A stretch of DNA of 64,000 nucleotides, taken from sequence record PQ511149.1. One strand, written 5' to 3'. Of this stretch, positions 41,927-42,502 are shown in pieces. This DNA is from Escherichia phage NHEP11. Below the pieces are notes generated by a model. The model made no database searches. It worked only from the letters and a program-made list of their open reading frames with translations, and was not told the DNA's origin. Position numbers and translations under genes: made by a program. Position 1 is the stretch's first letter, and every line of letters starts with the position of its first letter.

Positions 41927-42140
41927 AAGGAATTTCCTCATCGGTGGCAAGGTCATATTCGACCAATTGGATAGGCTCATTAATACCATATCCGCGTACA
42001 GTGATATCGGTTGACGGATATTTTCCAGTAATATCACCCGTTCTAAATGCTTCAATGAATGATTGCTCGCCTGAGCAACTAAACCAGGCGGCAAAACATT
42101 TTAAAACATCTTCAGACCCTTCTATAATCAATTTAGCCAT
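41916..42140 (-). CDS. hypothetical protein
   Basis: 74-aa ORF. Confidence 0.4.
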   Translation of the reverse strand: MAKLIIEGSEDVLKCFAAWFSCSGEQSFIEAFRTGDITGKYPSTDITVRGYGINEPIQLVEYDLATDEEIPYVD

Positions 42141-42502
42141 TATAGACTCTCAGTAAAGGTACGAGCGATAACGTCGCGCTGCTGTTCTGGAGTCAGAGAG
42201 TTAAAGCGAACTGCATAACCGGATACACGGATGGTCAGCTGTGGATATTTTTCCGGATGCTTAACTGCATCTTCCAGAGTTTCACGACGCAGAACGTTAA
42301 CGTTCAGGTGTTGACCACCTTCAATTTTAACTTTAGGTTGATGTTCAATTTCAATTTCACGGGCATTCAAACCGTAGAAAATTTCCGGGTCTACAATAGC
42401 GTCTTCTTTAAAAGTCTTAGAGACGATAATCCGGGCTTGAGTACCGTCTTCAAAATAAATAGTGCCTTTATGTGCACCTTCAAGAATTTGATATGCTTTC
42501 AT
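42140..42502 (-). CDS. grcA: autonomous glycyl-radical cofactor GrcA/YfiD homolog
   Basis: 120 aa; C-terminus [59 protein letters not shown] as recalled for E. coli GrcA; the 3' half of the gene is visibly more GC-rich than its surroundings. Confidence 0.85.

Follow-up and report, generated by a model that had tools for sequence, protein, structure and literature searches.

Candidate host-to-phage gene conversion in the glycyl-radical domain of gene vs.6 of T-even phages

Introduction

Two described relatives of the protein treated here are Vs.6 (Y06I) of phage T4 and GrcA (YfiD) of Escherichia coli. According to PMC8683613, which cites Wagner et al. 2001, both are activated by the pyruvate formate-lyase activase (PFL-AE) and restore pyruvate formate-lyase (PFL) that has been cleaved by oxygen. 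The C-terminal half of YfiD replaces the radical domain of PFL, and its N-terminal region aids installation of the radical (PMC13450708). The vs.6 gene and its function are already known, and for T4 the biochemical role is at textbook level. The closest analogue of the putative conversion described below is the psbA exchange between cyanophages and their hosts; in psbA and psbD, intragenic recombination of host and phage copies and patchy GC content have been reported, and for psbA exchange in both directions (PMC1484495).

The locus studied here lies in Escherichia phage NHEP11 (PQ511149.1), of which a stretch of 64,000 nucleotides, hereafter the window, was analysed. Like vs.6 of T4, the gene is located between vs.7 and vs.5, encodes 120 amino acids, 112 of which (93%) are identical to the T4 protein, and has the same three-part DNA anatomy. 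It differs from T4 in the N part, which is of the RB69 (Mosigvirus) type and identical to T4 at 163 of 183 nt, in the tract that follows, where T4 carries R73H, and in the tail (GAG AGT CTA here, GAA AGT TTG in T4). With E. coli GrcA it shares the form of a small stand-alone protein, the RVSGYAV motif and the correspondence of phage residues 61-120 to GrcA residues 68-127. However, the phage protein is seven residues shorter, its N part is highly diverged, and its match to TIGR04365 (spare_glycyl, the NCBIfam GrcA equivalog), spanning residues 18-120, stays below the cut-off (159.1 against 170 bits). The host gene is found between ung and eamB, while the phage copy is part of an early-gene cluster. 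The last 64 residues of PFL (PflB 696-759), the element replaced by Vs.6, also align with it (E=3e-26), but the Vs.6 domain is identical to that of GrcA and not to that of PflB.

Compared with psbA and psbD, vs.6 is likewise a host-derived metabolic gene of T4-like phages in which segments appear to be exchanged with the host copy (PMC1484495). Unlike those genes, it shows a single domain-sized tract with defined edges and 99-100% donor identity, apparently transferred from host to phage only. In addition, the case concerns the best-studied coliphages, and two candidate donor genera correspond to two genera of phages.

Identification and genomic context of vs.6

The initial annotation had described the open reading frame as a GrcA-type glycyl-radical spare part, which the profile and structure matches bear out and refine to the known T4 gene vs.6 (Y06I). 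Pfam Gly_radical (PF01228) was found on residues 60-101 (E=2e-18, 67.3 bits, cut-off 22.2), as a C-terminal domain with the RVSGYAV motif, and PDB entry 6owr (E. coli GrcA) matched with E=2e-42. The protein of about 14 kDa stands alone, without the catalytic barrel and the Cys-Cys site of the full-length enzymes; matches to PFL and other glycyl-radical enzymes cover just the last 55-65 or so residues of these. The putative radical site Gly95 corresponds to G102 in E. coli GrcA and to G734 in PFL. The shortfall against TIGR04365 is due to the divergent phage-type N part. PHROG 1209 was matched with E=9e-63, and by its sequence Vs.6 belongs to a phage paralogue-like branch and is not a bacterial equivalog.

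The gene is assigned to vs.6 of an RB69-like (Mosigvirus) T-even phage, since its N half shares 99-100% nucleotide identity with RB69-type phages and 88-89% with T4-type phages. In AR1, T2, RB69 and T4 the gene at the syntenic position bears the annotation vs.6, and the synteny extends to PHB12. Its early-region neighbours are e, denV, vs.8, vs.7, vs.5, vs.4, regB, vs.1, vs, tk.4 and tk. Its place between vs.7 and vs.5/vs.4 within the tk-vs-denV-e region and its phage-type N-terminal module assign it to the T4-like vs.6 family. The features of the locus are collected in Table 1.

Table 1. Features of the vs.6 locus and related genes in the 64,000-nt window
Feature	Position	Strand	Remarks
vs.6	42140..42502	minus	ATG at 42502, TAA at 42140-42142; 120 aa
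N part, codons 1-61	42320..42502	minus	phage-type, AT-rich, purifying selection
Host-identical candidate conversion tract, codons 62-117	42152..42319 (as analysed)	minus	identity run begins 5 nt upstream, at 42324
Tail, codons 118-120 (GAG AGT CTA) and TAA	42140..42151	minus	phage-type, unconverted
Gly95 codon, putative glycyl-radical site in RVSGYAV	42218..42220	minus	aligned to 6owr and PFL 696-759
GAGG, Shine-Dalgarno-like	42507..42510	minus	4 nt before vs.6 ATG; consensus match only
vs.5 (downstream)	41916-42140	minus	74 aa, PHROG 1986; ATG overlaps vs.6 stop (TAATG)
vs.7 (upstream)	42509-42865	minus	PHROG 2049; ends 6 nt before vs.6 ATG
nrdG, nrdD (context)	24457-24927, 24924-26741	minus	Pfam NRDD E=2e-169, Fer4_12 E=2e-48

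The genes vs.7, vs.6 and vs.5 look translationally packed, and a GAGAG sequence lies upstream of the TAATG start region of vs.5. No promoter above background was found around vs.6 in a scan of window positions 41300-43500. Over the same positions six terminator-like hairpins were present, with 1.8 expected from shuffled sequences; two of the six (42226-42243 and 42306-42320) lie inside vs.6 on the plus strand, antisense to the gene. A match to the N part in Escherichia phage ZCEC14 (OP168898, 99740-99922) is labelled 'HNH homing endonuclease' and is probably mis-annotated.

Mosaic structure of vs.6

Codon alignment with E. coli grcA (reference L001:447-830) divides the gene into three zones. 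The N part shows only 51% nucleotide identity to the host gene, with indels and weak protein similarity, and has a GC content of 0.355 (GC3 0.246). It is a module common to seven T4-like genera, and between Mosigvirus and Tequatrovirus it has changed with dN of about 0.05 and dS of about 0.43 (dN/dS about 0.1). The following tract is identical to E. coli grcA at 166 of 168 nt. The two differences, CCG>CCA at P87 and again at P105, are both synonymous, and the final 180 nt of the gene match the host gene at 175 positions. At the protein level, residues E61-L120 are identical to GrcA 68-127 without exception (60/60), including RVSGYAVRF with the radical glycine G95. The tail differs from the GAA AGC CTG of E. 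coli and agrees with that of distantly related phages, namely RB16, leN and the Slopekviruses.

Composition follows the same division. The GC content of the tract, 0.488 against 0.373 for the whole window, is reached by just 0.1% of 168-nt windows across the 64 kb, and all five tract leucines are encoded by CTG, which accounts for 11% in the long ORFs of the phage. The overall codon-usage score of the tract, at the 22nd percentile, is not extreme. When window positions 30001-55000 were compared by megablast with 5,426 complete E. coli genomes, a single match was obtained, at 42132-42324. In a triplet test with the window, E. coli grcA and RB16, informative sites in the tract were 26 E. coli-like to 1 RB16-like, and in the flanks 4 to 12 (Fisher p=1.4e-6). 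As in the recombination reported for psbA, the tract thus groups with the host and the rest of the gene with phages, with a supported breakpoint.

These results uphold what the initial annotation had proposed from the letters of the sequence: a C-terminal region of about 60 residues near-identical to GrcA, a GC-richer 3' half (0.488 against 0.355, so that composition is not uniform across the gene), an AT-rich, phage-like N-terminal half, and a mosaic gene. Nucleotide identity of the tract to host grcA is high in alignment and megablast. Two statements of the annotation need narrowing. The host-like codons are evident in leucine CTG usage but do not show in the overall score, and the host-derived part is codons 62-117, not the whole 3' half, as the host-like stretch ends before the stop codon and the last three codons are phage-type. 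Contamination or misassembly was considered and rejected, because over 600 independent phage records, the T4 reference among them, show the pattern.

Donor of the tract

Host grcA sequences for comparison were drawn from a genome scan with 80 species listed. Over the last 180 nt, E. coli grcA was matched at 178 positions by that of another Escherichia species, at 167 by Citrobacter amalonaticus, at 152-156 by Klebsiella and at 151 by Salmonella. The low value for Salmonella identifies Escherichia as the donor. Measured against E. coli, the window tract has a dS of 0.05 and the tracts of twelve T-even phages give 0-0.07, while grcA of E. coli is separated from that of Citrobacter by 0.39 and from that of Salmonella by 1.15. 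In neighbour-joining analysis 289 of 300 bootstraps placed the T-even tracts with Escherichia, and none of the 300 recovered phage monophyly. The claim of a host-derived segment is therefore well supported by both the grouping and the synonymous distances.

The tract was present in all 5,426 E. coli genomes, with a best match of 98.8%. A rarer E. coli allele was considered as the source of the two CCA variants; no E. coli allele in these genomes carries them, so they are regarded as phage-private mutations. PflB was likewise rejected as donor of the tract, as the best match in every genome was grcA and the encoded protein is identical to GrcA and not to PflB. Transfer from host to phage is indicated by the host-like composition of the tract, its presence in every E. 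coli genome and the species-tree-like position of E. coli.

Age and spread of the tract in T-even phages

Four Mosigvirus and nine Tequatrovirus sequences were compared. The tract is identical to E. coli grcA at all 168 positions in two T-even loci (L100 and L102) and at 167 in T4, where the one change, R73H, is non-synonymous. In both genera the consensus sequence of the tract is that of the E. coli allele. Between the genera, the N part has a dS of 0.35-0.51 and the tract one of 0-0.13; fixed differences number 12 in 183 nt of the N part and 0 in 168 nt of the tract (p=4.5e-4). The tract must therefore be younger than the split of Mosigvirus and Tequatrovirus, which gives the recent origin suggested at first a meaning in relative terms. 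Within each genus, the diversity of the tract is about equal to that of the N part, and the data fit one or a few conversion events per lineage rather than continuous overwriting. The third position of codon 73 (window 42284) is CGC in RB69, AR1 and L103 and CGT in E. coli. CGC is also the state of RB16, KP17 and the Slopekviruses, and could be a residual ancestral-phage base left by patchy repair or a recurrent mutation.

From these patterns we infer recombination, which probably proceeded as follows. T4-like phages would have carried a diverged grcA homologue for a long time. In T-even phages the part encoding the radical domain (codons ~61-117) would have been overwritten through homologous recombination or gene conversion with the chromosomal grcA of E. 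coli, the substrate most likely being an older, roughly 83%-identical phage copy together with host DNA fragments. The extent of homology would have decided how far the patch reaches, on the 5' side to the beginning of the radical domain and on the 3' side to a point three codons before the stop. The conversion would have taken place after the split of the two genera, either independently in each or as a single event followed by spread between them, and would leave the phage with a radical domain that is residue for residue that of its current host. The tail, left unconverted, shares bases with the start of vs.5, which, more speculatively, may add a constraint.

The single-event version, in which one T-even phage acquired the E. 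coli segment and passed it to the other genus by phage-phage recombination, is the strongest of the alternatives, although we regard it as unlikely. Recombination between T-even phages is known, the tract edges are the same in both genera, and the tract variants are private or rare and form a star with the E. coli allele at its root, all of which one shared event would explain. Such a transfer would, however, normally bring flanking phage DNA along. In the 24 nt upstream of the 5' junction there are four differences between the two genera, and there are others in the tail; their divergence reaches within 12 nt of that junction, and the genes flanking vs.6 are 50-83% identical between them. The edges also coincide exactly with the end of host-phage homology, as expected for events templated by the host, and the Klebsiella-type tract described below points to at least one further conversion from host to phage. 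Repeated host-to-phage gene conversion, keeping the radical domain of vs.6 identical to that of the host, is the best reading of the sequence patterns.

Klebsiella phages and other lineages

A second case was found in the Jiaodaviruses KP17 and Roth34, for which the host sample consisted of two Klebsiella alleles, both from K. variicola. The tract of these phages is identical to one K. variicola allele (L180) at 162 of 168 nt, with dS 0.12-0.15 and dN 0-0.008, compared with dS 0.55-0.77 to E. coli. The Klebsiella residues E77L and K81E are present in both phages and P105S in Roth34 only. The 5' edge is the same as in T-even phages and the 3' edge lies one codon earlier. The clade of Jiaodaviruses with K. 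variicola received moderate support (233/300 bootstraps, 78%). In the phage collection, 62 Klebsiella-phage records were 95-99% identical to the K. variicola tract, their alignments ending about 10 nt before the stop codon. These data are best read as a separate, independent conversion in Jiaodaviruses with Klebsiella grcA as the putative donor.

No recent patch was seen in the Slopekvirus, Pseudotevenvirus, Karamvirus, Krischvirus, T5-like and environmental lineages examined, and since other phages of the same hosts are without one, conversion appears to be rare or restricted to certain lineages. For the tract of Salmonella grcA, no phage of the collection reached 95% identity or more, and no Salmonella-specific conversion was seen. 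The IMG/VR scan returned few T-even sequences, that collection being dereplicated. The vs.6 gene itself is absent from Dhakavirus JS98 (NC_010105, 52000-72000) and Gaprivervirus SP18 (NC_014595, 52000-72000), T4-like phages of E. coli/Shigella in which vs.7 is followed directly by a vs.5-like ORF and vs.4. Its absence from these two genera indicates that vs.6 is dispensable and patchily distributed among coliphages.

Several further sequences touch on the distribution of the gene. The Slopekvirus vs.6 (L084 and L091, from phages of Klebsiella/Raoultella) carries E77L and K81E but is identical to Klebsiella grcA at only 145 of 180 nt, which could go back to a conversion of much greater age or to convergence on the amino acids of the host protein. 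A 122-aa homologue is found beside tRNA genes in T5-like siphoviruses (T5, AY692264 27659-28027, and IMG/VR sequences L141-L167). It starts with MKAYQ, as does the T4-type N module, and its radical-domain DNA is about 72-75% identical to that of any host; this suggests an old spread of the gene from phage to phage.

An E. coli-type tract occurs in Yersinia phage PYPS2T and Salmonella phage Manna, both isolated on non-Escherichia hosts, and a Klebsiella-type tract in Salmonella phage PSE-D1. A Hafnia phage and Pseudomonas phage vB_PSGBLB0006 are listed among the matches as carriers of T4-type vs.6. As a record of the natural host genus, the tract may be more reliable than the host used for isolation.

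Outside phage genomes, a full-length grcA was located on the 275-kb plasmid unnamed4 of Klebsiella sp. WOUb02. An enterobacterial-type grcA in Vagococcus sp. WN89Y, 91% identical to that of E. coli, is probably due to contamination or mislabelling. Some IMG/VR contigs classed as viral, one with a host-type full-length GrcA (L127) and others with the 3' end of pflB (L168-L177), are likely of bacterial or prophage-flank origin.

Predicted function of Vs.6

Because Vs.6 of the window is 93% identical to T4 Vs.6 and its radical domain is identical to that of host GrcA, it would be expected to act as the T4 orthologue does, receiving the radical from the PFL activase and restoring oxygen-cleaved PFL. 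In the proposed sequence of events, the host activase PflA would place the radical on Gly95, and activated Vs.6 would dock onto host PFL whose radical domain had been cut off by oxygen. The activity restored in this way would allow fermentative production of acetyl-CoA, ATP and formate to continue during the phage shut-off of host expression. As host gene expression stops after infection, the phage would bring its own spare part.

The genes nrdD and nrdG, pointed out in the initial annotation as partners of an anaerobic life style, are both present in the window (Table 1). They encode the phage's anaerobic ribonucleotide reductase and the activase of that enzyme, and both have annotated counterparts in phage PHB12. 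Adaptation to anaerobic gut conditions is plausible. An alternative is that Vs.6 serves the phage NrdD, or acts as a decoy for the host activase, instead of repairing PFL. The occurrence of nrdD and nrdG in the same genome speaks for it, as does the role in nucleotide metabolism that was guessed in an earlier genomics paper (PMC1524935). Vs.6 has, however, no similarity to phage NrdD detectable by BLASTP (E=12), from which PFL and not NrdD follows as the likely client. With the radical domain identical to host GrcA, the match to PFL 696-759 and the restoration of PFL in vitro by the T4 orthologue (PMC8683613), this alternative is considered improbable.

Repair of PFL could nevertheless connect vs.6 with nrdD and nrdG. 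Formate is the reductant of class III ribonucleotide reductase and is also a product of PFL, so that PFL kept alive by Vs.6 could feed the phage NrdD.

Protein conservation and direction of transfer

Conservation of the protein, without any exchange of DNA, has to be weighed as an explanation of the host-like tract. All T4-like genera examined have the phage N module where vs.6 is present, together with a highly conserved radical domain, and in the Pseudotevenviruses (RB16, leN, CfP1) that domain is identical or near-identical to the E. coli protein. A single ancient capture of whole grcA with no later exchange, after which the N half drifted unconstrained and the C half was held by selection on the protein, would account for this high conservation across all phage lineages. 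It would also fit the alignment of the whole phage protein with E. coli GrcA from residue 21 onward, and the position of the breakpoint, which falls where the disordered N-terminus of YfiD gives way to its radical domain (PMC13450708). Yet protein conservation cannot hold synonymous sites. RB16 and CfP1 differ by dS 0.91 at dN 0.008, and RB16 and E. coli by dS 1.6 at dN 0. Since Pseudotevenviruses keep the protein at dS of about 0.9-1.6, synonymous sites are free to change in phages, and the T-even values of 0-0.07 are contradictory to an ancient capture. The tract is, moreover, closer to E. coli than are the grcA genes of Citrobacter or Salmonella, and the N part is itself under purifying selection (dN/dS ~0.1). 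On this evidence an ancient capture without exchange is very improbable.

The reverse direction, in which E. coli and separately Klebsiella would have taken the 3' part of grcA from phages, has nothing specific in its favour beyond the two-way exchange reported for psbA and is hardly credible, being contradicted by the placement of the E. coli tract among Enterobacteriaceae grcA beside another Escherichia species and near Citrobacter, its presence in every E. coli genome searched, its GC content and CTG usage, which are host-like and atypical for the phage, and the similar degree to which both parts of E. coli grcA, N and C, diverge from other enterobacteria.

Conversion from the host gene is accordingly retained. 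It is very probable that vs.6 encodes a PFL spare part whose radical domain was converted from the host gene in T-even phages and, separately, in Jiaodaviruses. The wider proposal, that T-even-type phages keep the radical half of vs.6 matched to the host by repeated copying from the chromosome during infection, a host-templated concerted evolution, is advanced tentatively, with a little less than even confidence.

Significance for T-even phages and their hosts

The annotation of the gene is ordinary, and the conversion pattern is of moderate specialist interest. No report of vs.6/grcA gene conversion was found in the full texts searched, which were mostly from outside the subscription journals, and the pattern may have been noticed before. 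What may be new is a domain-sized patch with 99-100% identity to E. coli grcA in T4, T2, RB69 and hundreds of their relatives, and the parallel Klebsiella-derived patch in Klebsiella phages. Together they would offer a clean, dated case in which strictly lytic phages, which destroy the host DNA, acquired host sequence by gene conversion, and the recombination is open to direct laboratory test.

The pattern suggests selection for an exact match between the repair part and the host enzyme. The tract could also serve as a simple marker of the natural host genus, and Yersinia, Salmonella or Hafnia isolates with an E. coli-type tract probably come from Escherichia. If repeated copying from the chromosome is true, it would give the phage instant compatibility with the PFL and activase of a new host after a host shift, and would leave a short DNA 'fossil' that identifies the genus of its true natural host. 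Such copying would in addition be direct natural evidence of recombination between the chromosome and strictly lytic, host-DNA-degrading phages, including T4.
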